A DNA stretch of 64,000 nucleotides from a virus. Its lineage: Duplodnaviria; Caudoviricetes. This document shows, piece after piece, positions 35,652-63,866 of this stretch. The DNA is taken from the IMG/VR virus record IMGVR_UViG_3300028833_005986, positions 32,001-96,000 of that record; one strand, 5' to 3'. The stretch's first letter is position 1; every line of letters begins with the position of its first letter. The notes under the pieces are model-generated. The model searched no databases. It saw only the letters and a program-made list of their open reading frames with translations, and was not told the origin of the DNA. Both the position numbers and the translations under genes were made by a program.

Positions 35652-35686
35652 AAAAGAGTAGATATAAAAAATATCTACTCTTTTTT
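35652..35686. terminator. bidirectional terminator between convergent genes
   Basis: AAAAGAGTAGATAT-aaaa-ATATCTACTCTTTT. Confidence 0.75.
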
Positions 35687-36686
35687 TAATTATATTGTTC
35701 TAATAACCATAATGCATCAACTTTTTCATTAATAAATCTATTTCTTAATCCATTAATTACACTTAAATTATAAGCGTGACAGAAATTATAAGTTGATCGA
35801 TAATATCCTAAATTATAATCCCAATATACAGAATCGCATTCACCAATTAAAAAGTTATAAATTTCAATAATAATATCATTATCAAAATATGCACTATCAA
35901 TATAGGATAAATTAGGATATTCAAATATATCTTCATTTACATATTCTAATAAGCTAATACATCCAGAATTGCCATTTTGAATCGCACGAGCAAAAATTAC
36001 ACTTTGCATTGCAAATGAATGTTTATCTATATTAAAATATTTAACTTTTAAACGCTGTAACACAGGATAATAATATTGACTTAATGCAAATTCATCTTGT
36101 AGCTTTTCAAAATTACCGGGATCAACATTACCTAATTGCTGCCACAATTTAATAAATTTATTACTATTAATAGTATACTTATTTAATTCTTTACCATAAT
36201 TCGCTAATCGAGGGTGTGAATAATTACATAACCATTGTACAAATTCATCTACTACTCCAACGGTAGATGAGAATTGATATTTCTAGTATATTTATTCAAT
36301 TTTTCTTTAAAAAAATTCTATATGTAATTAAATTATATTAGAATTTATTTGAAGAAAAATTGAATAAAATTATTAATCTATTTATATGAAATTAAATAGC
36401 ATATGACTATATCTTTATTAAAAGACTTTTAATAAATTTCGATATAATTAAATATATTTACTTATAATTAGTCGTTAGATAAATATTTATTATATTAATA
36501 AATATTTATTATTGATATATTAAATATTAATTATATCAATAATTATATATTATATTAATAGCATTAATATTTACCATAAGATTGTCCACCAATATCTCCA
36601 TAACCAGTAGAAACAAATCCTGGTCCGCGGCCAGAAGTTTCATATTTATTAATTAAATATGTAATAATTGGAATATATTCATTCAT
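35686..36686 (-). CDS. peptidoglycan hydrolase (VgrG3 C-terminal-like muramidase), spliced from exons 36686-36573 and 36282-35686 (236 aa)
   Basis: Spliced motif KYETSGRGPGFVSTGYGDIGGQSYG|KYQFSSTVG; later F..LQ.EF....YY.P, ARAIQNG, GLRNRF.NE. Confidence 0.85.
36283..36572 (-). ncRNA. group I-like intron, 290 nt
   Basis: P1 ATGGT/GCTAT (U.G); R CTAACGACTA, S AAGATATAGTCA; ends CTAG; restores the SYGKYQ motif. Confidence 0.92.
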
Positions 36687-37267: not shown

Positions 37268-40200
37268 TTAAAATGTTAATCTCCATGTACACTAAATAAT
37301 ATTGGACTATATAATTAATTAATAAAGTTATTATAGTCTCTGAAGAATATACAAATTCTTACTGATTAAATTATTATTAATTACTTTCAGTAATTTAAAC
37401 TTTTTATATAACTACTACATATATTAAATAGTTAATCTAGAACTTGCGTCTTTCTAATATATTATTATTTTAGCATATACTTAAAATATCTTATATATTT
37501 TATATAAGTTTAGATTATATCTTTTATATAATTAAATATAAACTATTATTATAATCGTTGTATATATAAATTATTCTTATATAATTTATATATTACTAAT
37601 TAATATTATTAATAATATTTTTAGTAAATAAATAATTTACGGAACAAAAATCTATTATAAGAATATAAAATTTTTATAATAATAAAAAACATCGTTCCAA
37701 ACTGGAAATACTTTCATTATTTTTTATTTGGACTATATCATATATAAAAATTATTTATATTAATATTACTAGTCTCTGATATGATTAATAATCATATACT
37801 GATTTATTTATTAAAAATAAATATTCCAGTAATTTTATTATTTTATAATCGTAAAGTATTTAAAATATAATCAAAATTTTATCAGCGATTGAACATATAA
37901 CCAGTATCTTTTCCAGCTCCATTTTCCCAGGCAGAAGCATTTCCGCCAAATATAGCCATTTCAGTAATTGGACCTACAGCTTCATCTTCATTAAATGTTG
38001 TTACTAATTTTAGAATATTCGTATTATAATCTTGCTGATAATTTTTAAAATATCTTCTCATCTTAAAAATTCATACCAATTAAGCTCTCTTGTTATTATA
38101 TATGTACTAATATATAATCAAATCAATCTACACTTCGCAGCGTATTCTAAAATCAATTCAATATATACTTATCTCTTATATATATCATAATCAATTCTAT
38201 ATTGATTCTTGAACTCTAATTCGTATTGGCGCTACCAGCGCACCTCTACAGTATAAAGTAGATATATCTTCATATAAATTATGTATATCTCGACTTTCTA
38301 TTAAGTCTTCATAAGATATCTTTCTACTTATAACCTTACCTTTATTTAACTGTTTTATTTTTTTATATTCTTTATTTAATAAATATTTCTTTAATATATT
38401 CAAAGATCCATTCATATCTGCATTTATTAATATACCATTCTTGGACTTATAAAGTCCTCTCTTTATTCTCTTACCTGCAAAGTGTTTCTTTTTTAATTCT
38501 ATCTTATCATTTATTGTTCTTAATACATATCCTAATTTTTCATCTTTTTTATATGATAATATATAATCATTATCTAAGAAAGAAGCTTTAGATGTAAATG
38601 ATTCTTCTTGAAGAACAAATTTAATATTATTCATCTTACATCTATATTCTAAATTATCTTTTATCTTACTAAATGGTATACTAGTAAAGAATTGATTATT
38701 TTTCTTACCTAAATTAGATTTTCTTTGAAAGTCATTGTTCCATCCTAATATAATAATTTTTATATTATTTTGTAAAGAATAATCTATTAATTTTTTACAA
38801 ATCTTATGGATATAATAATTAACTTTATTATTTCTTTTCTTTAATATATTATACATCTTTTTTGTATATCTTAATTTTTTATTAGTATTTTTCTTTTGTA
38901 ATTTACTAATAATTCTATTATATCCTTGATTTATAGATTTCAATTCTTTACCATCTAATATAAAACTATTAATTTTTTTCTTAGAATTATGATTATAATT
39001 AATACAAGTCATTAAATTATTAATGCCTAAATCAATTGATAAATAATTATTATTAACTTGTATATTATCATTAATTTCTATTTCATAGGTATAATGAATT
39101 TCAAAAATTTTACCTTTATATTTAGGAATTACTTGAATATATTTTATTTTTTTATCTTTTAATATAGCAGGTATTTTTATTCTAAATCTATCTTTACTTT
39201 TTAAAGTTAAATTATATTCTTTTAATATTTGATAACTTAGAGGAATAATCCATTCATTATTTTTATTTATATGAATTTTATTAGTTGGAAGTATAAAATA
39301 ATCATTTTTGTCTAAATATTTAGGAATATTACATTTTAAACCTTTTTGTTTTAAAGTGAAGAAAGATTTAAAATTTTCATCTATTATATATAAGATATTA
39401 CAACTACAATTAGCTTCTAATAATTTATAATTAATATTATTTTTAATACTATGATAATTATCTATATAATTTAAATATTTACCAATATTAAAGAAATATT
39501 GTCTAATATTATATAGAGCAGAATTATATAGATTTTTACTATATTTACATAATTTTTTAAATAATATATATAATTGTTTATATTTATATATACTGACTTG
39601 TTGTTTAACAGTTAAATAACATTTTTCTTTTTTATTGATATTATTTTTAAGATTTCTACTAATAATAATAATTCACATCTTTTTAATATTATAAATTTTA
39701 ATAATATTAACAGTTTAAATAACTATTAGTAATAGGATTAGATATTTTAAAACCTATTAAGCTTTGATTTTAATTAAAGCATAGATTATATCATTAATAT
39801 ATAAGATATATAATTAATGATTCTATAGAAATATACAATATTAATCGTTAGATAGATATATATTGATAAAATATATATTTATTATTGATCTATTATAAAA
39901 TTATAAATATTCCAATAAATAATTAAATTATCAAACCATTGTATGGTTCATCGTTTTCATCAACAAAACACCACGAAGTAAATTTCTTACGATATAATTC
40001 ACCTACTAATCTAGTATCAGTTAATTGTGCTTTATGTTCCACCTCTGGATCCATAATATCCCATAATACTGTATTAACTTTATTATTTACACGGTCATAT
40101 GGCTGATCTTCGTGTTCGAGAATACCAACGCCAACAGCTAAAACCTGTAAGCCTGTAATTTTTTGAATATCACTAACAGTAGTACCAGTTTCCGATTCCA

Positions 40201-47919: not shown

Positions 47920-50900
47920 TTATGCTTTATAAATGCGATATCTAATAGTAAAAGTATCTGATGGTGTTTCTTTTGCATATAAATAAAAGCATCCCGATGC
48001 TGAAACTGTAAAGTCTGCTAATCCTGCTGCACGAGCTATATTTGTATTACTTGCTAATTCTACTTCAACTACATCATTAGCTGTTAAATTACTAACATTT
48101 ATTTGATATCGCCGTGCATATGATATATTATTAATAGTAGTTGCGGTGGTATACCAAGCACCAGCAGTTGTAGAACTGGTAGTAGTTGTTTTTGCAATAG
48201 TTACTGCCGAAGCATATGTATATTTAGTCATATAAGTAGTATCAATTCGCTGTCCTTTAATATCTTGCAGTGCTTGTAAAGCATTAATACCCATAGGTTG
48301 GAATTCGCCATTTACGTACTGCCAATATTGATTATATAAAAGATTTATATTCATTTGATATGTAGAATATGATCTACCAACATATAAATAGGTATATCCG
48401 TCTTCACTAGTAGGAGCTGTAGTAGTTAAAATATCAGAATGTACAGTAAAAGTATTACCAGATAAAGTACCTTTTAAATATACTGGTTTCTTTTCTGCAA
48501 ATGTTCTTGATGCATTATCAACTATTGTTTGCATATTAGCACCAATACTAATCCAATACAAACTTGTACTCAATGCAGCTGCATCAGCCACCGTTGATCC
48601 ATTAAATAATACTGGATGTCGAATATCAAAAGTATCTCCTGCATTAAGTTCTTTATATGCTATGCCATCAGTTGTACCTACAAATCTTGCAGCAGCAATA
48701 GCACCATCAGCAGTTGCTACTGGATTCGCTATTCTTATTCTATCATAATAGTTGGCATCATAATCAGCAAGTACAAACCAATAAGTACCATTATAAATTA
48801 ATGGAACATAATAATTCGCACTATATTGTGTTGTTAATCGAGTTGTAGAGTATCTATAAATTGCTTTTGCGCCTGTTGTACTTCCACCTGAAAGTGTAAG
48901 ATTTAATGTAGCATTACCAGAACTCGAATATGGTAATTTATAAATAATCATTTTACCAGTATATAGAGCAGCATCTTTTGTTACGCCAGTCCAAGCACCT
49001 GTAACTGCTGTTTGAGTACCTACAATATATTCTATAGTGTGTTCACTAATCTTTTTACCATTAGAATCATTAGTAGCTGTAGCAGCTGTTCCGCTAATAT
49101 TAATCCCCCAAGTACCTGAAGCATCTCCACCTGTTCTACTAGGAACTGATAAAGTTGTTCGCATTGCTGCTACATCTGCATCATCTAATAACGTTCTTGC
49201 TATAGCTGTTAATGGTGTAGTTGCATATGTATTAGAAGCAGTTGTATAAATCATTTGATTTGCAGAAGTAGCTAACCCACTAATAGAAGTTAAAGCTGCA
49301 TGAGCACTTTGTTTAGTAGTAATAGCATTATTTAATGTAGTATATACACTAGCATCTTTATTAATAGCATTAGCAATTTCTTCCAAAGTATCTAATGTAC
49401 CAGGTGCCGCACCAATTAAATTATTAATAGCATTATCGACAAAAGCTGTAGTAGCTACTTGTGTAGTCTTAGTGCCTAATGGAGCTGTTGAAGCTGTTAC
49501 CGTTCCTGTAAATGCAGCACCAGCCAGTTTAGCATAAGTAGTATTAATTGGTTTATTATCGCTGTCATTAGTTGCTTTTGTTGCAGAATCAGCATTACCT
49601 GTTAAATTAGCTTTAATTGTCGCAGGCAATTTAAGAATAATATTAGAAGATCCATCAAAACTAGTAACAGCACCTGTATTAGCAGCAGTAGAATCTTGAA
49701 TACTAATAGATTTTGCAACAGCTAATTTAGTAGCAGTATCAGCATTGCCGTCTAAACTTGCTTTTATAGTCGCTGGTAATCTTATATTTAATACAGAAGT
49801 ATTACTTCCATCAAAACTAATAGCCGTACCAGTATTCGCTCCAGAACTATCTTGAATATTAATAGATCTTGCTGTAGCTAATTTAGTAGCTGTAGTTGCA
49901 TTACCAGTTATACTACCAGTAAAAGATTGTGCAATTACTCCCGCAGGAAATGTAACGTTATTATTTATATCCCAAGTATAGAATCTGTTATGACTAACTA
50001 TATTGTGATCAGAAAACCACCAGTTACCACCATAAAAACGAATATCATTTAATGATGGCGAACCATAACTAGCATTTACTGTTGTTTGTTTAAAAGTCAT
50101 ACGCAATGCATACATATTTCCTGATTGCGAAGCAGATTGATTAAAACCTTGTACTTGATTGAAATAAATTATATTATTTCCTGACCATCCGCTTAATGGC
50201 TTCTCAGTAAATAAATTAATCCAAGTATCAGTATCTTTATCTGCAAATTTTTGCCAATCAAGCGTTACATTCCAATTATTACCATTAGTGGAGCCCCAAA
50301 TATATAAAGCATTTACACTAACATATCTACCTGAAGGCATAATAGTAATACGTAGCTGATTATTAAGACTATTATCTGCTTTTACAGATGCTTTACCTAA
50401 GAACATGTTAGTAGTACGTAATTCCATAAAGATAGCCTTTTTTTGATCATCAGTTAAACCATAATCAATCCATGTTTTGCCGCCATCGCGTGAATATTCT
50501 ACAATAGTTGTCGCGCCACTAATACCAAATGTTTTATTAGATGCCCATGCTCCTACGCGATTACCAGTAATCCAGTCTAAATTACCTGCTATACTTTCTG
50601 TTGTGGTATTAATTGATGATGGAGTAATATTACCAGATATATTAGTCGCTTGAATATTAGTGGCTGATAGTGTAGATGTAGCGGGATTAACTTTTACTCC
50701 AGAGCCAAAAATTGCTGTATTCGCACCACGATTTGTTGATGCATTTTCTGTAGATACTAATAATACTGGGTATGTTGCATCCGCAGTAGATACATTTTGC
50801 GTCATTAGTGTATCAGTATTAGTATCGCCGTATAATGTAGTAGTTGTACCATTTATAGTAATTTTACCTACTTCAGTACCAGAAGTCTTTGTTTGTGTAA

Positions 50901-53900
50901 AACTAACAGCATCTGCAGAAGCAGTAATACCATCTAATTTAGATTTATCTGCGGCAGACATTAATCCAGCAATACTAGTTGTTGCTTCATGCTCAGTACC
51001 AGTAGAATTAATAGTAATTACACCATTAGAAGCCGTAACTGTAGTAGAACCAGTACCTTTAATATTAATGGCATTTCGTACAGTAGAATCATCAATAACA
51101 TTTAAATGCACATTACCATTAGTAGCAACTGCATTAGCTGTTCCGTTATTAGCACTAGCTGCTACTAAATGTGTGGTATAATGCGTATTAGTATCTGTAG
51201 TTGGAGGCGTATAGCCTAATGCAGTGGTAACATTATCTTTAGTTAGACTAATCGTACCTGAAGAATTAGTAATATTACTACCTATTTTAACTAATCCTAA
51301 ATTACTACCAGACGCAGCAGAATATGTCGTATCTTGTGTAGTAATAGTACCAGTATCTCCATCACCTTTAGTATAAGTGATAGTCTTACCAGATACAGAT
51401 AAGTCTTTAATATAAGTATCAACGATATCTTGATTTTTACTATCTTTAGTAGCAGAAGTAGCCGCACCTGATAAGTTACCTGTAAAAGTAGTAGCTGTTA
51501 CTTTAGTTGCTAATAATTCACCAGTTGATGGATTGATTTTTATATCTTTACCAAATTGTGCAGCATTAGCCGAAATATTACTTGTCGCATTAGCTGTAGC
51601 CGCAATTAATACTGGATATGTTGAATTTACAGTAGAAATATTTTGTGCGACTTTAGCATCCGTATTTGCTGCGGCAGCTGCAGCTTTAGCAAAAGCTGTT
51701 GTAGCAATTTGTGTATCATTAGTAGCGATTGCCGCTGTAGGAGCAGTTGGCGTTCCAGTTAATTCAGGCGATGCTAATGGTGCATAAGTAGTATTAATTT
51801 GATTACCGACAGAATCACTAGTCGCTTTTGTGGCTAGACCACTGAAATTTTTAGCCGTAATAGTACCTGCCGACGGATTAATAGTAATTGCAGAATTAAA
51901 ATAAGTACCACTAGTAGTATCTGTTACCGCGGTGCTATTTTTAAATAATACTGGATATGCAGAATTAACAATTGATATAGCAGTTTGTGTTACATTTTGA
52001 TCCTCAGTAGTAATAGTTCCGGTAGTATTATTACCTTTAGTATATGTAATAGTTTTACCTGAAATTGCTAGGCCTACAATAGCATTAGCTTTAGCTACAT
52101 AAGTATCGGCGATATTATGCCCACCACTATCATTTGTTGCATTAGTTGCAGAAGTCGCATTACCAGATAAATTACCAGAAAAAGTAGTAGCATATAAAGT
52201 GCCAGTAGATGGATTAATTTTAATAGTTTTACCAAAAATTGCAGCTTTTGCACCTTGATCTGTTGTAGCATTAGGTGTAGAAGTAGCTAATATTGGATAT
52301 GTAGAATTAGTAGTAGATACACTTTGTGTTACAAATGTATTTGTATCAGGTGTAGTAATAGTACCTGTAGTTCCATTACCTTTAGTATAAGTAATAGTCT
52401 GTCCAGAAATAGCTAATCCTGTAATAGCATTAGCTTTAGTTTCATAAGTAGTAGCAATATTATGTCCTGCACTATCTTCAATAGCTGCATCTGCAGTGCC
52501 TTCTAAATCGCCAACAAATTTAGATGCAATAATACTTTTATTGTTTGGATTAATTTTAATATCTTTACTAAAAATTGCAGTTGTAGTTGCATTAGTACTT
52601 GCATTTACTACTGACGATGCTAATAATGGATAAGTAGAATTAGTAGTCGAAACGCTTTGTTGCATTTTTTCATCTTTAGTAGTTAAAGTGCCAGTTGTAT
52701 TATCTCCGCGTTTAAAAGTTAATGTCTGATTTGATAGAGTTAAATCAACAATTCCTTCAGTCTTTTTAACATAAGTCGTGTTAATCGGTTTATCATCACT
52801 ATCGTTTGTCGCTTTTGTAGCAGCTGTGGCAGTAGAAGCATTACCGTTTAAAGTAGCTTTAATAGTAGAAGGTAATTTAATATATAATGTAGAAGTATTG
52901 CTACCATCAAATTTAATTTCTGTACCAATATTAGTACCATCAGCATCACTAATATTAATAGATCTCTTATTAGCTAATTTAGTTGCAGTAGAAGCATTAC
53001 CTTCAATAGTAGCTGTAATCGTACCAGGTAATTTAATGGTACCAGCTGAAGACCCATTAAAATTAAATGCAGTACCAGTATGTGATCCGTCACTATCACT
53101 TATATTTATATTTCTTCCTGTTTCTAAAGTAGTAGCAGTAGCAGCATTACCGGTACATTTTGCTGCAGTATCTGCCGTAGTTGCTGATGCTGCTTTTTCA
53201 CTTTTACCTAAAGCATCAATAGTTGTACGCATATCAGAAGCTGTAGCATCATCTAATAAATTCCTTGCTAATGCAGTTAATGGCGCAGTTTTATATGTAT
53301 TAGAAGCTGTCGTATAAATCATTTGATTTGCAGACGTAGTTAAATTACTTATAGAAGTTAATGCTGCATGGGCTGATTGTTTTGTAGTAATTGCATTATT
53401 TAATGTATTATATACATCTTGATCATTATTGATTGCATCTGCTAATTCTTTTAATGTATCTAATTCTGCTGGAGCTGCTCCAATTAAATTTTTAATAGCA
53501 TTATCTACAAAAGCTGTAGTAGCTACTTGTGTAGTCTTAGTACCCAATGTAGCTGTAGGAGCAGTTGGTGTTCCAGTTAATTCTGGTGAAGCTAATGGTG
53601 CATAAGTAGTATTAATTTGATTACCAGAAGAATCATTAGTAGCATTAGTAGCAGTATCAGCATTACCTGTTAAATTAGCTTTTATAGTACTAGGTAATTT
53701 AATAGTACCATTTGTCGATCCGTCAAACTCAATAGCAGTACCGGCATTAGTATTATCAGCATCACTAATATTAATAGATCTTTTATTAGTTAATTTAATA
53801 GCTTTATCTGCTGTACCAGTTAAATCAGCTTTTATAGTACCAGGTAATGCAATAGTTACTGCTTGACTACCATTAAAACTAGTACCTGCTCCAATATTTG

Positions 53901-54777
53901 TTGCATCCGCATCACTTATTTTTAAAGTACGAGAATTTTTTAATGTAGTGGCAGTAGCGGCATTACCAGTAGTATCTATACTAGCTGTACCACTTAATTT
54001 AGTAGCATCTAATGACGTAACAGGAATAGTAATATCTAAAGTACCATTAAATTCTGTAGCTGTACCAGTAGCGGCGCCAGAAAGTGCTATTGTTTTTTTA
54101 TTAGCTAATTTTGTAGCTGAATCTGCATTACCAGTTAAATCAGCTTTAATAGTAGCTGGTAATTTTAAAGTAACATCTGCAGAACCATTAAAAGTACTAG
54201 CAGTACCAGCATTTGTGCTATCATTATCATTAATAACAAAATTTCTAATATTCTTTAATACAGTGGCAGTAGAAGCATTACCATCAATTTCAGCTGTAAT
54301 GGTTTTTGGTAATGTAATAGTACCATTAGCAGAACCGTCAAAATTAATAGCTGTACCTGTATGCGTTTCGCTATTATCTTGAATATTAATAGACCTGCTA
54401 TTAGTTAATGTTGTAGCAGTAGTAGCGTTGCCAGTTAAATCAGCTTTAATAGTAGAAGGTAATTTAAGATTAATATTTGATCCGCCGTTAAAACTAGTAG
54501 CAACGCCTGTATTTGTTTTTGATGCGTCGCTAATAGTAATATCTCTACTAACACTTAAATTACTTGCAGCTGTAGCTGTACCATCTGCGGGAAGAAATGA
54601 ACCTACGATAGAATTATTATAAAATTCAGAAATTTTGCTATCAATTCGATTATCTGTAGCATTTGCAAAATCTGTTATTTGTGAACTTTCAGTTTCTGGA
54701 TGTAATACTTTATATATAGCTTTATTATTCAAATCGCGATCAGCAATTACATGTATTTTTCCTTTAATTTCTGCCAA
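47920..54777 (-). CDS. long tail fibre protein (2285 aa, repetitive)
   Basis: Many GNA.TA.KL...R.I.I.D...G..FDGS.N..I.LP.TI.A repeats; PTAPTA..T..TQ.ATTAF and LDTL.E.A.AI fibre motifs. Confidence 0.9.
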   Translation of the reverse strand: MAEIKGKIHVIADRDLNNKAIYKVLHPETESSQITDFANATDNRIDSKISEFYNNSIVGSFLPADGTATAASNLSVSRDITISDASKTNTGVATSFNGGSNINLKLPSTIKADLTGNATTATTLTNSRSINIQDNSETHTGTAINFDGSANGTITLPKTITAEIDGNASTATVLKNIRNFVINDNDSTNAGTASTFNGSADVTLKLPATIKADLTGNADSATKLANKKTIALSGAATGTATEFNGTLDITIPVTSLDATKLSGTASIDTTGNAATATTLKNSRTLKISDADATNIGAGTSFNGSQAVTIALPGTIKADLTGTADKAIKLTNKRSINISDADNTNAGTAIEFDGSTNGTIKLPSTIKANLTGNADTATNATNDSSGNQINTTYAPLASPELTGTPTAPTATLGTKTTQVATTAFVDNAIKNLIGAAPAELDTLKELADAINNDQDVYNTLNNAITTKQSAHAALTSISNLTTSANQMIYTTASNTYKTAPLTALARNLLDDATASDMRTTIDALGKSEKAASATTADTAAKCTGNAATATTLETGRNINISDSDGSHTGTAFNFNGSSAGTIKLPGTITATIEGNASTATKLANKRSINISDADGTNIGTEIKFDGSNTSTLYIKLPSTIKATLNGNASTATAATKATNDSDDKPINTTYVKKTEGIVDLTLSNQTLTFKRGDNTTGTLTTKDEKMQQSVSTTNSTYPLLASSVVNASTNATTTAIFSKDIKINPNNKSIIASKFVGDLEGTADAAIEDSAGHNIATTYETKANAITGLAISGQTITYTKGNGTTGTITTPDTNTFVTQSVSTTNSTYPILATSTPNATTDQGAKAAIFGKTIKINPSTGTLYATTFSGNLSGNATSATNATNDSGGHNIADTYVAKANAIVGLAISGKTITYTKGNNTTGTITTEDQNVTQTAISIVNSAYPVLFKNSTAVTDTTSGTYFNSAITINPSAGTITAKNFSGLATKATSDSVGNQINTTYAPLASPELTGTPTAPTAAIATNDTQIATTAFAKAAAAAANTDAKVAQNISTVNSTYPVLIAATANATSNISANAAQFGKDIKINPSTGELLATKVTATTFTGNLSGAATSATKDSKNQDIVDTYIKDLSVSGKTITYTKGDGDTGTITTQDTTYSAASGSNLGLVKIGSNITNSSGTISLTKDNVTTALGYTPPTTDTNTHYTTHLVAASANNGTANAVATNGNVHLNVIDDSTVRNAINIKGTGSTTVTASNGVITINSTGTEHEATTSIAGLMSAADKSKLDGITASADAVSFTQTKTSGTEVGKITINGTTTTLYGDTNTDTLMTQNVSTADATYPVLLVSTENASTNRGANTAIFGSGVKVNPATSTLSATNIQATNISGNITPSSINTTTESIAGNLDWITGNRVGAWASNKTFGISGATTIVEYSRDGGKTWIDYGLTDDQKKAIFMELRTTNMFLGKASVKADNSLNNQLRITIMPSGRYVSVNALYIWGSTNGNNWNVTLDWQKFADKDTDTWINLFTEKPLSGWSGNNIIYFNQVQGFNQSASQSGNMYALRMTFKQTTVNASYGSPSLNDIRFYGGNWWFSDHNIVSHNRFYTWDINNNVTFPAGVIAQSFTGSITGNATTATKLATARSINIQDSSGANTGTAISFDGSNTSVLNIRLPATIKASLDGNADTATKLAVAKSISIQDSTAANTGAVTSFDGSSNIILKLPATIKANLTGNADSATKATNDSDNKPINTTYAKLAGAAFTGTVTASTAPLGTKTTQVATTAFVDNAINNLIGAAPGTLDTLEEIANAINKDASVYTTLNNAITTKQSAHAALTSISGLATSANQMIYTTASNTYATTPLTAIARTLLDDADVAAMRTTLSVPSRTGGDASGTWGINISGTAATATNDSNGKKISEHTIEYIVGTQTAVTGAWTGVTKDAALYTGKMIIYKLPYSSSGNATLNLTLSGGSTTGAKAIYRYSTTRLTTQYSANYYVPLIYNGTYWFVLADYDANYYDRIRIANPVATADGAIAAARFVGTTDGIAYKELNAGDTFDIRHPVLFNGSTVADAAALSTSLYWISIGANMQTIVDNASRTFAEKKPVYLKGTLSGNTFTVHSDILTTTAPTSEDGYTYLYVGRSYSTYQMNINLLYNQYWQYVNGEFQPMGINALQALQDIKGQRIDTTYMTKYTYASAVTIAKTTTTSSTTAGAWYTTATTINNISYARRYQINVSNLTANDVVEVELASNTNIARAAGLADFTVSASGCFYLYAKETPSDTFTIRYRIYKA

Positions 54778-59394: not shown

Positions 59395-60929
59395 ATGGCT
59401 ATTATTTTAGAAGCTAAAGATGATCTTAATCAGTTTATATTAACAGATTATGAACGCAAACTTATTTATCGCCTCCGCGTTTTACTAAAAGATTTACCAG
59501 ATGATGTTCTTAGAACATTAAATACGTTAGTCGAACAAAATCGCGGAATTAATATTATTAATACTAAACTACATTTTAGAAATTATATTAATTTTTTTAT
59601 GCCGCGAAAAATTATAAAAATTTCAAAGAAATACTAATATATTATTTGAATTATTAATAAAATTATTTAATTAATAATTTCTATATAAGCAACGTATATT
59701 ATTTATAATTAATAAAAAAGAAATATACTAATCTTTTTATATAAAAAGAAAATATATAATAAAATATTTATAAATATAAATGGAACGATGGACAGATCAA
59801 ATGCTAATAAATTACATATATCAATCTTTAGGATATATTAATGCAGCGCCTTTACAAACAGGATATGATTTAACAAATATACCTACAGCATGGGAAAGCC
59901 CACTATTAACCGGTGCAATGGTATTCTCACTTTTAGCAGAAGCTATATTACAGACTGGAAACATCATATAAAATAAATATATTGCTTGTATAGCAATATT
60001 AGTTTTAAATTATTCTCTAGTCAAATAAATTAAAATAATTTCGAGAAATTATTCAATAAATTTAATTCGAAAATATATTATATATATTATATAATAATTG
60101 CAACGCATAATTGAATTTAATATAAACATAAAAAATTATGCTAATCTAAAAAGATAATTTTTAGATAATAATTAATATAATTATTATTTAATACAAAAAG
60201 AAACATTTTCCTATTCAGATAATGGAATCAGTCAAAAATTAAAGGCTGAAATAAAATTTAATTAATTACGAGAATAATATATCTATATTTATTCGTAACT
60301 TATATAAGTTCAAAGACTATATATTAAAATTATTAAAATAAAAAATAGTCTAATTATATAATGCTTTCAATTTCTAATGCTGGACAGTACCAATCTCTAG
60401 CGAACGGATTACTATCCGGCTTTGAGCAACAAATAAAATCTTTAAAAGCATATACAAATATGCTTATACAATTAATTAATTTAATGAAAACACATATATT
60501 ATGTATATATTAAAATAATATTTATTTTTAAATAAATCTTATTTCAGAGCATATAAATATTAATTTATAATAAATGATTTATGCCATTCTATATTAAAAT
60601 TTATAGAATTATATAATAATAAATATATTTTCTTCTTAATTCAAAAAATTTGAGGCCAAATCCGGCTGGAATTTTTCATAAGTTCTTGTATAAATATATT
60701 ATTGCTAAAAATATATATTATATATCAATTAGCATTTATTTAAATATAAATATATTATTTATAAATCAACGACTATATAATATTTATTAATAAAAATATA
60801 GTCTTATTTTAGCATTTGTTAAAAATATTAAATTTATAAATTTAATAAAAAATTCAAAATTGATATGGAGGAATGAATTCAGGAGTCCGAATTCGCTCAT
60901 ATTCCCCGCGAATGTGGGTTTATAGATAA
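59395..60929 (+). CDS. neck/head-completion-like protein, 6 exons (59395-59547, 59783-59960, 60201-60232, 60364-60453, 60653-60672, 60863-60929; 179 aa)
   Basis: Spliced: ..RLRVLLKD..NRG|ERWTDQML..INAAP..LQTG(K/E)TFSYSDNGIS|LSISNAGQYQ..KAY|RPNPAGI|YGGMNSGVRIRSYSPRMWVYR*. Functional label is inferred from the FSYSDNGISL-type motif. Confidence 0.78.
59548..59782 (+). ncRNA. group I-like intron, 235 nt
   Basis: P1 TCGCGG-A / G-CCGCGA (59601-59607); R CAACGTATA, S AATATACT; ends AATG. Confidence 0.82.
59961..60200 (+). ncRNA. group I-like intron, 240 nt (ends uncertain by 1 nt)
   Basis: P1 GACTGG/CTAGTC; R CAACGCATA, S TTATGCT. Confidence 0.78.
60233..60363 (+). ncRNA. group I-like intron, 131 nt
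   Basis: P1 TCAGT/GCTGA (U.G); R TCAAAGACTA, S AATAGTCT; ends AATG. Confidence 0.85.
60454..60652 (+). ncRNA. group I-like intron, ~199 nt
   Basis: P1 AAGCATAT/ATATGCTT; R TCAGAGCATA, S TTATGCC; ends TTTG. Confidence 0.78.
60673..60862 (+). ncRNA. group I-like intron, 190 nt
   Basis: P1 GGAAT/GTTCT (U.G); R TCAACGACTA, S ATATAGTCT; ends ATTG. Confidence 0.85.
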
Positions 60930-61085: not shown

Positions 61086-63866
61086 ATGATTTTTTTATTA
61101 AAAATTTTTTATGAAATTGAGGTAAAAATAATTATGAGTATGACTTTAGAAGAAAAAAGACAATTAGCTATTCAAAGTTTAAAAGAAAAAATGATTAATA
61201 AAATGAAAAAAATAAAATCATCAGATGATACTATAGAGAATATACTCTATAATATATCCGATGAAGCTGAAAGAAATTTATTACGTATATTCAATTATTG
61301 CCACAGGCAATTTGAATATCAATGTAAATATTTCGAATTAAATAATACTATATTTATTCCTAATATTTACTGTAATAAAAATAAAACATTTTATATATTA
61401 AATTTTATTAATCAATATACCGGTTCAGATAGAAAAAAAATAATAAATGAATTTATTAATTTATATCCAAATGAAAAAATAAAACTAATATCATTAAAAC
61501 AATATAGAAAAATAATAAAATGGTTTCGAGATGATATTTTATTTGAAAGTAGTAAATATAAAATTAATTTTAGCTTAGATAATAAAAAAAGAATAAAATG
61601 TAATTATTGCGGAACAAAATTTACATCTAACAATAAAAAAGATAAATATTGTTCTGAAGAATGTGCTATAAATGCACATAATAATAAAACAAATAAATCT
61701 ATAATACGTCATTATTATTCAGGATATTATATGGATATACATCATTATGTTCGATCTGGATGGGAACATAATATAGCACGAATATTACAATGGAGTCAAT
61801 TAAATTATGATTATGAATGCCATACATTCAAATTAAGTAATGGTACTACATATACTCCAGATTTTTATATATATGCTGATAATACATTTTATGAAGTAAA
61901 GGGCGAAATGCGCACAAACACATTAACAAAATATAATATGTTTAAAGAAGAATACCCAGAAAAAAAATTAATAATAATAGACGGAAAGATATATCAAGAC
62001 TTATTAGAGCAGTATACCAATATTGATTTTAACCAATATCAGTATAATCAATATCAAACATTACCATATACTATTAATAATATTAATCAATATAGAGTTT
62101 CTAATATAAAATATGAAATGTGGGAATTAGATTATAAATTTTATACAAATAAGCGCTATAATAATAGTAAATCAATTGCTGCAGATGAAAATATTAATAA
62201 TTTTATTAATATAAAAGAATTAGCAAATAATAATTATTTATTAAAAAACATAGCAATTAAAACTATACGTTATATGCATATTAATAATGAATTTTTTATT
62301 TTTAAGGATGATATACAGATTAATTCTACTAATAAACAAGCTACTATTATTCAGCATAATACTTCTTTACCAGAAATATTTCATAAATGTTTACAAAAAA
62401 TCTTACCTAATAAATATATTGTTATTTGTCAAAATTGTAAAAAACAATATATAAGTAATTATATCGCATATAATAAACCTCAAATTTGCCGTGATTGCTA
62501 TCAAATAATATATAATAATACAGATATTAAACGTCAGCAAGCTAATAAAATGCTTATTAAAAATTTAAAGCATATACACTGGCATATTAATGATAATCAT
62601 ATACAATTTAATAATGAAGCAGAAAATAATTTTGCTTTAATCTTAGAATATTTAAATAATGAATATACATATGAAGATGATTATCGATATATTGACAATT
62701 ATCAATATATTTATCAATTTAATTTTTTTAGAAATAAAAATAATACAATTTATATTTTAGAATTTTGTTTAACTTACACGATTAGACTAAGAGTAAAGTC
62801 ATTTTTAAATGAATATAATGAAAAAGTACATATTATTACGCGCAAAAAATACGAAAGAATCTTAAAATTTTTTAATACAAAAATTAATTTTACTTATAAT
62901 CAATATCCTTTACAATATTATGTATTACATATTTGTCCTATTTGTAATAATAATTTTTATGCTAATATACAACAAATTTATTGTTCTAGTCAATGTAAAC
63001 ATAAAAGCATGAATAAACAATATAAAGAAATAAGAACTAATTTATATCAATATAAGCTTACAGATGAACAATTAAATAATTTACAATGTACTAATTTACA
63101 AGCAACAAACAAAAAATTATTAAAGCAAATGCATAATTTAAATTCTAATAATATTGATATAAATAATATTAATTTACCCAATGAAGAAATTAATTTTATT
63201 AAGGTATTACAATATTTAAAATTAGAATTTTATTATAAAACTGAATATAAAAAATTATCTACTGGAAAAATTTTAATTATGAAATTTTATTTACCAGTAG
63301 ATAATCACTATTATTTTTTAACTTTTGTCTATAATCGTAATTATATTAATAAAATAAAACAATATATAATTGAAAATGAAAATAATAATTGTATATTAAT
63401 TGATAAATATATATATGAACAATTATTACAACAATATAAAAATAAAATTGATTTTATACAAACTACTATTTGTACATTAAATAATAATCAAATAGTAAAT
63501 AAATGTAAATATTGTGGTAAAGAATTATCTACTGTAAAAAAACAGCATTTATATTGTTCTAGAAAATGTTATGAACTGGCTAAACGAAAATATATTAAAA
63601 AATCTTGTATCAATTGTAATAATAAATTTTTAGTATTAGATGATGATATTAATAATCAATATTTTTGTTCTTCAAAATGTGGCGAAGAATATAAACAAAA
63701 AATACAAAATAATAATAAATTATCAGTAATTACTGAAAATAATATAATTAAAAAATTTTATAATACTCAATGCGAGTATTGTCATAAACAGCATTATTAT
63801 TTTGGTACAAGAAAGCACAAATATTGCTCTAATATTTGTAAAAGAAAAACAAATGCTAATAAATAA
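61086..63866 (+). CDS. multidomain protein with four PD-(D/E)XK endonuclease-like repeats (one intact) and several C..C..YCS..C zinc ribbons; start probably 61134
   Basis: RSGWE..IAR.L...YE...F...YTPDFY...EVKG plus three degenerate copies; GAGGT RBS before ATG 61134. Confidence 0.75.
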   Translation: MIFLLKIFYEIEVKIIMSMTLEEKRQLAIQSLKEKMINKMKKIKSSDDTIENILYNISDEAERNLLRIFNYCHRQFEYQCKYFELNNTIFIPNIYCNKNKTFYILNFINQYTGSDRKKIINEFINLYPNEKIKLISLKQYRKIIKWFRDDILFESSKYKINFSLDNKKRIKCNYCGTKFTSNNKKDKYCSEECAINAHNNKTNKSIIRHYYSGYYMDIHHYVRSGWEHNIARILQWSQLNYDYECHTFKLSNGTTYTPDFYIYADNTFYEVKGEMRTNTLTKYNMFKEEYPEKKLIIIDGKIYQDLLEQYTNIDFNQYQYNQYQTLPYTINNINQYRVSNIKYEMWELDYKFYTNKRYNNSKSIAADENINNFINIKELANNNYLLKNIAIKTIRYMHINNEFFIFKDDIQINSTNKQATIIQHNTSLPEIFHKCLQKILPNKYIVICQNCKKQYISNYIAYNKPQICRDCYQIIYNNTDIKRQQANKMLIKNLKHIHWHINDNHIQFNNEAENNFALILEYLNNEYTYEDDYRYIDNYQYIYQFNFFRNKNNTIYILEFCLTYTIRLRVKSFLNEYNEKVHIITRKKYERILKFFNTKINFTYNQYPLQYYVLHICPICNNNFYANIQQIYCSSQCKHKSMNKQYKEIRTNLYQYKLTDEQLNNLQCTNLQATNKKLLKQMHNLNSNNIDINNINLPNEEINFIKVLQYLKLEFYYKTEYKKLSTGKILIMKFYLPVDNHYYFLTFVYNRNYINKIKQYIIENENNNCILIDKYIYEQLLQQYKNKIDFIQTTICTLNNNQIVNKCKYCGKELSTVKKQHLYCSRKCYELAKRKYIKKSCINCNNKFLVLDDDINNQYFCSSKCGEEYKQKIQNNNKLSVITENNIIKKFYNTQCEYCHKQHYYFGTRKHKYCSNICKRKTNANK

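Follow-up and report, generated by a model that had tools for sequence, protein, structure and literature searches.

Small self-splicing group I introns are usually compared with the one in the pre-tRNA-Ile of Azoarcus sp. BH72: it measures about 205 nt, belongs to subgroup IC3, lies in the tRNA anticodon loop, and is G-C-rich and very stable, keeping P2, P8 and P9 together with tetraloop-receptor contacts. In phages, the introns of Staphylococcus phage Twort orf142 and of T4 td, nrdB and nrdD belong to subgroup IA, range from ~250 to 1000 nt, have P2, P7.1/P7.2 and P9, and often harbor homing-endonuclease ORFs; among group I introns in general, P2 and P9 are common but not universal. In Jug gut jumbo phages, which carry 18.5 introns per genome with a mean length of ~206 nt, metatranscriptome reads confirmed splicing for 37 of 76 introns (PMC12880540). 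Many intron-split genes have also been described in Bacillus phage AR9 and MarsHill-like Staphylococcus phages (bioRxiv 10.1101/2020.12.14.422802), and extreme gene fragmentation in zeta crAss-like phages (PMC7886860). Far shorter elements are reported from the rDNA of Phialophora and lichen fungi, as putative degenerate group I introns of 56–81 nt in which only P1, P7 and P10 are kept (PMC3160393).

Here we describe two inserts of 131 and 138 nt that are very probably genuine ORF-less group I introns cut to little more than the catalytic core. Both lie in a window of 64,000 nt, the whole stretch of DNA that was analyzed, which corresponds to bases 32001–96000 of one 166,990-bp IMG/VR virus record carrying a provirus-fragment label. 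The GC content of the record is about 20–23% and its completeness is estimated by CheckV at 34%; ORFs are dense under the standard code and a tRNA scan found none. The two genes that hold the inserts, one gp165-like and one gp190-like, have matches among GenBank phages only in Bacillus phage G (a 497-kb jumbo phage). Because both genes match only phage G and the completeness estimate is 34%, the record looks like approximately one-third of a phage-G-like genome. A 2285-aa ORF in the window (47920–54777, − strand) has a GC content of 33–35% versus about 20–23% for the genome, and its match to a DM13 domain is marginal.

By comparison with the systems above, the two inserts resemble the Azoarcus intron in being compact and ORF-less and in having the same core helices and, presumably, the same chemistry, while the Azoarcus intron is ~70 nt longer. 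With the Twort orf142 and T4 introns they share a location in phage protein-coding genes, the presence of several introns in one gene, AT-richness and similar R/S boxes. The introns of the Jug, AR9 and MarsHill-like phages are likewise many per genome and several per gene, occur in structural and replication genes and are mostly ORF-less, whereas the host genome here is a phage-G-like fragment; unlike the Jug introns, which measure ~206 nt and were found with standard covariance models, those of 131 and 138 nt go undetected by Rfam and are without P2, P9 and nearly all of P8. The fungal degenerate introns differ in lying in rRNA, whereas the phage mini-introns lie in protein-coding genes and keep the P3-P7 and P4-P6 core. 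An initial annotation of this DNA had placed both introns possibly below the size of a self-sufficient group I ribozyme, with the Azoarcus intron as its reference, and both are indeed well below ~205 nt. The size floor so implied is softer, since degenerate introns of 56–81 nt have been published and one of them was reported to splice in vitro (PMC3160393). Both predicted introns are among the smallest with a recognizable core and represent the small extreme of a known kind. What is new is the reduction to 131 and 138 nt with the core intact, the almost complete loss of P8, and how densely the introns are packed (five in 540 nt of coding sequence; exons of 21–33 nt).

The gp165-like gene (59395–60929, + strand) has a coding sequence of ~180 codons, or 540 nt, in six pieces separated by five introns, whereas phage G gp165 itself is a single 180-aa ORF. 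A tblastn search with gp165 recovered six collinear pieces on the + strand, spanning 59395–60926, around which the following features are arranged:

59395–59547, + strand: first gp165 piece (tblastn)
59783–59959, + strand: second gp165 piece (tblastn)
60200–60232, + strand: third gp165 piece and exon 3, 33 nt (gp165 residues 111–121), joined to exon 4 in the intron-less relative L074; the last five bases are the exon strand of P1
60233–60363, + strand: intron 3 of five, probable ORF-less group I intron of 131 nt (tblastn, intron-less relative, helix check)
60364–60447 and beyond, + strand: fourth gp165 piece (tblastn)
60364–60453, + strand: exon 4, 90 nt (tblastn, relatives)
60650–60673, + strand: fifth gp165 piece (tblastn)
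60885–60926, + strand: sixth gp165 piece (tblastn)

Between them, the third and fourth pieces leave out exactly 60233–60363 (131 nt), a stretch preceded by U and with G as its last base. A longer relative found by protein search (P0007) is a single ORF with 86% identity over exon 2 that runs uninterrupted through the sites of introns 1–3, and in its DNA (L074) a Ser codon ending in U is followed directly by a Leu codon where the window has the 131 nt. The tblastn pieces and this intron-less junction together show the coordinates 60233–60363 to be exact, as first proposed. Intron content varies among related loci: an intron of the 131-nt type is kept in L002–L004 (131 nt) and L005 (141 nt), from which intron 4 is absent; L006–L009 are without intron 2; and L005 and L006 have an additional intron at another site. 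Such presence/absence polymorphism of the neighboring introns would be as expected of mobile introns. A search of IMG/VR for related loci with exon 2 returned no relatives. Contigs of the phage or its relatives derive from SRR17418341, SRR17418355, SRR12650297/8, ERZ1667812 and ERZ27234818.

At the second locus, phage G gp190 and a relative with ~65% protein identity (L073) place the last exons of the gp190-like gene at 37453–37428 and 37289–37268 on the − strand, with an insert between them (37427–37290, 138 nt) that is flanked by U before and has G at its end. The 3' end of the gene is in four pieces with three small introns between them, and the final exons measure 21, 26 and 22 nt:

ending at 37885, − strand: long exon of the gp190-like gene
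37884–37715, − strand: intron of 170 nt, absent from L073
37714–37694, − strand: exon of 21 nt
37693–37454, − strand: intron of 240 nt, absent from L073
37453–37428, − strand: micro-exon of 26 nt (gp190, L073); the last six bases (37433–37428) are the exon strand of P1
37427–37290, − strand: probable ORF-less group I intron of 138 nt, third of the three small introns (gp190, L073, helix check)
37289–37268, − strand: last exon, 22 nt including the stop codon (gp190, L073)

In L073 the first three gp190 pieces are fused into one ORF, the two neighboring introns being absent, and a 141-nt intron sits at the same codon as the 138-nt intron of the window. Phage G gp190 and L073 fix both junctions, and the extent earlier assigned to this insert (37290–37427) is likewise exact.

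Both loci have neighbors with less regular features. Intron 1 of the gp165-like gene (59548–59782, + strand) has A in place of U before the 5' site, where it faces the guide G, and its P1 is still supported by a compensatory change; introns 2 (59960–60199) and 4 (60454–60649), set against intron-less alleles, would have A or U as their last base, given collinear proteins. The additional intron of L005 and L006 (approximately L005:1517–1660 and L006:1258–1778) follows the codons for Glu-Arg-Trp-Thr-Asp and has a canonical P1 U.G with a compensatory change between the two loci; in its P7 an A-U pair replaces the guanosine-binding G-C, and the first G comes 6 nt after the collinear 3' junction. 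In the gp190-like gene, the 170-nt intron (37884–37715, − strand) has C opposite A at the cleavage site and the 240-nt intron (37693–37454, − strand) has a C-G pair there. Directly downstream of the five-intron gene, a 926-aa ORF (61086–63866, + strand) with many Cys-rich repeats has PHROG matches to PD-(D/E)xK-type endonuclease or junction resolvase and to HNH endonuclease, and may encode a free-standing homing endonuclease. An intervening sequence at ~36290–36563 splits a VgrG3-like C-terminal (cell-wall hydrolase-like) gene (35686–36686, − strand), and a weak match to the 3' end of RF00028 falls at 36384–36417.

A TnpB-like ORF with one in-frame TGA (38197–39678, − strand) lies within the gp190-like gene, upstream of the three small introns. 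IStrons, whose group I moieties are likewise AT-rich Firmicute-type introns, are called to mind by a TnpB-bearing insertion in this same gene, and also by the irregular 5' splice sites of the neighboring introns, given that the last exon base of group B IStrons is G, a precedent for a base other than U (PMC4227781). Unlike IStrons, the mini-introns are without an IS part and have the canonical U.G and terminal G. We rejected an IStron identity for them, as no IS part is fused to either and the TnpB-like ORF sits in a separate insertion.

The helices of both introns were checked for pairing by script. In the 131-nt intron the elements are as follows:

60228–60249, + strand: P1, 60228–60233 with the internal guide 60244–60249, U.G wobble at 60232/60245 and a 10-nt loop (script; paired in 3 of 3 orthologues; in the minimum free energy (MFE) structure)
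60241–60244, + strand: P10 guide, 4 bp with the first four bases of exon 4 (60364–60367) (script)
60257–60328, + strand: P3, 60257–60262 with 60323–60328, six A-U pairs forming a pseudoknot with P7; invariant in the three orthologues and hence without independent support
60266–60298, + strand: P4 (60266–60272 with 60292–60298) and P5 (60276–60280 with 60285–60289) (script, MFE, orthologues)
60299–60308, + strand: P6, a 3-bp hairpin with a 4-nt loop (both-sided change among orthologues)
60315–60350, + strand: P7, R box 60315–60320 with S box 60345–60350, the first pair, G-C, being the predicted guanosine-binding pair (box scan, orthologues)
60329–60339, + strand: vestigial P8, three A-U pairs (60329–60331 with 60337–60339) and a 5-nt loop; the stem is invariant and thus weakly supported
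60340–60344, + strand: J8/7, 5 nt, A-rich
60351–60363, + strand: 3' tail, 13 nt, with the terminal G at 60363 and no P9

The corresponding helices of the 138-nt intron are:

37410–37433, − strand: P1, 37433–37428 with 37415–37410, U.G wobble at 37428/37415 (both-sided change relative to L073)
37324–37403, − strand: P3, 37403–37398 with 37329–37324 (one pair U-A in the window, C-G in L073)
37359–37393, − strand: P4 (37393–37387 with 37365–37359) and P5 (37382–37378 with 37373–37369) (changes relative to L073)
37345–37358, − strand: P6, a 4-bp hairpin (script, L073)
37305–37338, − strand: P7, 37338–37333 with 37310–37305 (box scan, L073)

The two introns share one order of elements. P1 with its U.G is followed after 6–7 nt by the 5' strand of P3, by J3/4 (3–4 nt) and by P4-P5; P6 abuts these and leads through J6/7 (6 nt) to P7, and after a further 2–3 nt to the 3' strand of P3; then come the P8 remnant, J8/7, the 3' strand of P7 and a tail ending in G. 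As only 6–7 nt separate P1 from P3, and only 13–15 nt separate P7 from the terminal G (13 nt in the 131-nt intron and 15 nt in the 138-nt intron), there is no room for P2 or P9. Features characteristic of group I introns are found in both, namely P1 with U.G, the terminal G (60363 and 37290), the P7 G-C with R and S boxes, and the P4-P6 domain. Of the P3-P8 domain, both window introns have P3, which shows a compensatory change in the 138-nt one, and P8 amounts to no more than three A-U pairs in either. In the 138-nt intron, the P7 strands are separated by 22 nt, which comprise 3 nt, P3' (37329–37324) and then 13 nt (37323–37311), the last holding a P8 remnant of at most 3 bp (A-U) plus J8/7; the P8 of L073 at the equivalent place has 4 bp and includes a C-G pair, and the 138-nt intron of the window is short of two loop bases. 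In the 131-nt intron, the P8 loop differs in each of the three orthologues around the constant three A-U pairs, which fits a P8 hairpin, though one with a very weak stem. The initial annotation had read a P1, a short paired region, P7 and a terminal G with almost no P9 or periphery from the letters, and the script finds all of these in both introns; the hairpin that it quoted is P4-P5 (60266–60298).

Comparative evidence bears on most of these helices. Between the 138-nt intron and L073, all 44 cells of P1, P4, P6 and P7 are standard pairs, versus 32–56% when the partners are slid; P1 has U-A in the window and C-G in L073, the exon-side change being synonymous, and P4 shows A-U changed to G-C as well as A-U changed to G.U. 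Among the three orthologues of the 131-nt intron (window, L002 and L005), 98% of cells are paired versus 30–42% when slid. Both sides of one P6 pair have changed here (U-A in the window, G-C in L002 and L005), and a P10 pair that is A-U in the window is U-A in L005, matching a synonymous change of a Ser codon in the exon. These orthologue sets are tiny (n = 3 for the 131-nt intron and n = 2 for the 138-nt intron) and the shuffle controls were non-significant (139/500 and 115/500). MAFFT misaligned the A-U-rich paralogues and the P3 region of the 138-nt pair, and P3 was hence checked by script. Read by eye across paralogues, the P4 strands vary complementarily while one C-G pair stays constant, and P7 is seen in several versions, each complementary. 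All helices are pure A-U except parts of P1, P4 and P7, so that alternative pairings are possible, especially for P3 and P8.

The R/S box pair of P7 occurs six times in the window (at four loci, some on both strands) versus 0.06 expected from 100 shuffles, and a looser scan by eye found the same boxes in about 14 ORF-less inserts of the 167-kb record. Both predicted introns belong to this family of at least 14 ORF-less introns in an AT-rich phage-G-like jumbo phage fragment. When IMG/VR was scanned for the exact pattern of these boxes, 41 viral contigs (L032–L072) matched, and in some of them P8 is normal. More than 20 phage contigs of 230–400 kb share a nearly identical intron, estimated at roughly 200 nt with its ends unmapped, in which P3 and J8/7 leave no space for P8. 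Because this intron is also without room for P8, the reduction of P8 is apparently a recurring trait of phage introns of this R/S-box type and not an accident of one locus.

Standard searches miss these elements. Rfam gave no match at the gathering score and none at either locus at E values up to 10; across the record, the best match to RF00028 (Intron_gpI) scored 17 bits versus a gathering score of 50, with 3'-end matches at other places. BLASTN of the 131-nt intron against GenBank phages returned only weak A-T-rich matches. The three orthologues of the 131-nt intron gave a covariance model too narrow for a census: it found one further full-length paralogue (in L005), and of the others only the R-to-S segment. 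No ORF of at least 30 aa lies inside the 131-nt intron, and those overlapping either intron start at its 3' edge and run into the downstream exon.

We assign both inserts to group I because of the collinear gp165 and gp190 pieces, the intron-less alleles, the canonical ends, the covariation, the R/S boxes, the polymorphism and the Jug precedent, and from the same sequence features we infer that both are spliced, and by group I chemistry. As the pre-mRNA folds, the end of the upstream exon would pair with the internal guide, the U.G wobble of P1 marking the cleavage site. A free guanosine would dock on the G-C pair of P7 and attack the 5' splice site; the terminal G would then replace the guanosine, and the freed exon end would join the downstream exon, which in the 131-nt intron would be aligned by the 4-bp P10.

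How such small RNAs might reach an active fold was the alternative posed at the outset, between a new minimal ribozyme and dependence on a trans factor. The predicted stability is −15 to −20 kcal/mol for ~145 nt and the MFE structure accounts for less than 1% of the ensemble; MFE z-scores against shuffles were −2.3, −0.1, −0.8 and −0.2 for four sequences, three of which are indistinguishable from shuffles. Neither intron has G-C-rich helices or recognizable tetraloop-receptor pairs. Since the RNA itself has nothing that stabilizes the core and its energies are near those of shuffles, we lean towards efficient folding in the cell having help, be it from a protein, from a chaperone or from the upstream exon being translated. 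In its strict form, this reading holds that the core is competent and folds productively only with a trans factor (RNA-binding protein, chaperone or translating ribosome), and we regard it, tentatively, as the most plausible of those considered. It is consistent with the low intrinsic stability and with the loss of P2, P9 and most of P8, and a reduced architecture common to the whole family of at least 14 would be easier to sustain with one common factor. Ribosomes reportedly assist the splicing of T4 td. Mitochondrial group I introns are assisted by CYT-18, Mrs1 and maturases (PMC2813881). A nuclease-like large ORF adjoins the five-intron gene and LAGLIDADG domains occur elsewhere in the record, but no candidate is tied to the introns: the LAGLIDADG domains lie only inside very long ORFs and are intein-like, and a DEAD-type match is marginal (26.6 bits, inside a 1316-aa ORF) in a record that represents 34% of the genome.

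A ribozyme that splices with guanosine and magnesium alone, which would be the smallest natural one with a complete core, is in our estimation a serious possibility but a somewhat less probable one. Each core element known to build the active site is there, and their order and spacing are canonical (P1 U.G, J3/4, P4-P6, the P7 G-C, J8/7 and the terminal G), the introns contain no maturase-type ORF, and genes for TyrRS and cold-shock-domain proteins were not found in the record (~1/3 of the genome). Derivatives of T4 sunY engineered to ~180 nt are reportedly still active, and weak catalysis persists in the P3-P9 half of a group I intron. Against self-sufficiency, no tetraloop-receptor or other peripheral clamps are recognizable, P8 is nearly gone, and the helices are almost all A-U with a stability like that of shuffled sequence, whereas the Azoarcus intron relies on G-C-rich helices and two tetraloop contacts. 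It would be bolder still, and we think it unlikely, to propose that the 131- and 138-nt RNAs are autonomous as the smallest natural self-splicing introns with the full P3-P7/P4-P6 core, without P2, P9 or a real P8, in a family that might also accept unusual nucleotides at its splice sites (A before the 5' site, a last base other than G, and A-U at the guanosine site in a relative).

That the inserts are dead remnants, decayed introns in genes no longer expressed as proteins, might be suggested by the provirus-fragment label of the record and the irregular junctions of some neighboring introns. It is, however, very improbable: the exons are open, in frame and conserved down to micro-exons of 21–33 nt while the introns diverge faster, and where the exon strand of P1 or P10 has changed, the intron guide has changed with it. 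Removal by other means (translational bypass, DNA-level excision, a protein endonuclease and ligase, or another intron class) has nothing specific in its favor, being raised only since standard models miss the elements, and is the least credible reading, given inserts of 131–240 nt with many stop codons, far beyond known bypass gaps, that have no terminal repeats and do have the group I R/S boxes, P1 U.G and terminal G.

If group I introns of this size are spliced, the natural size of an intron with an intact core would be much lower than the known examples, and they would show which elements evolution can discard, namely P2, P9 and most of P8; they could then be of use in ribozyme structural biology and as compact tools for splicing or circularization. 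Mini-introns of this kind escape both Rfam and gene callers, so that annotation of AT-rich jumbo phages breaks their genes up into series of tiny orphan ORFs. Should assisted folding, the reading that we favor, be needed for splicing, a general factor for group I splicing would be expected among the genes of the phage or of its host, and such a factor would be the first of its kind in bacteria.
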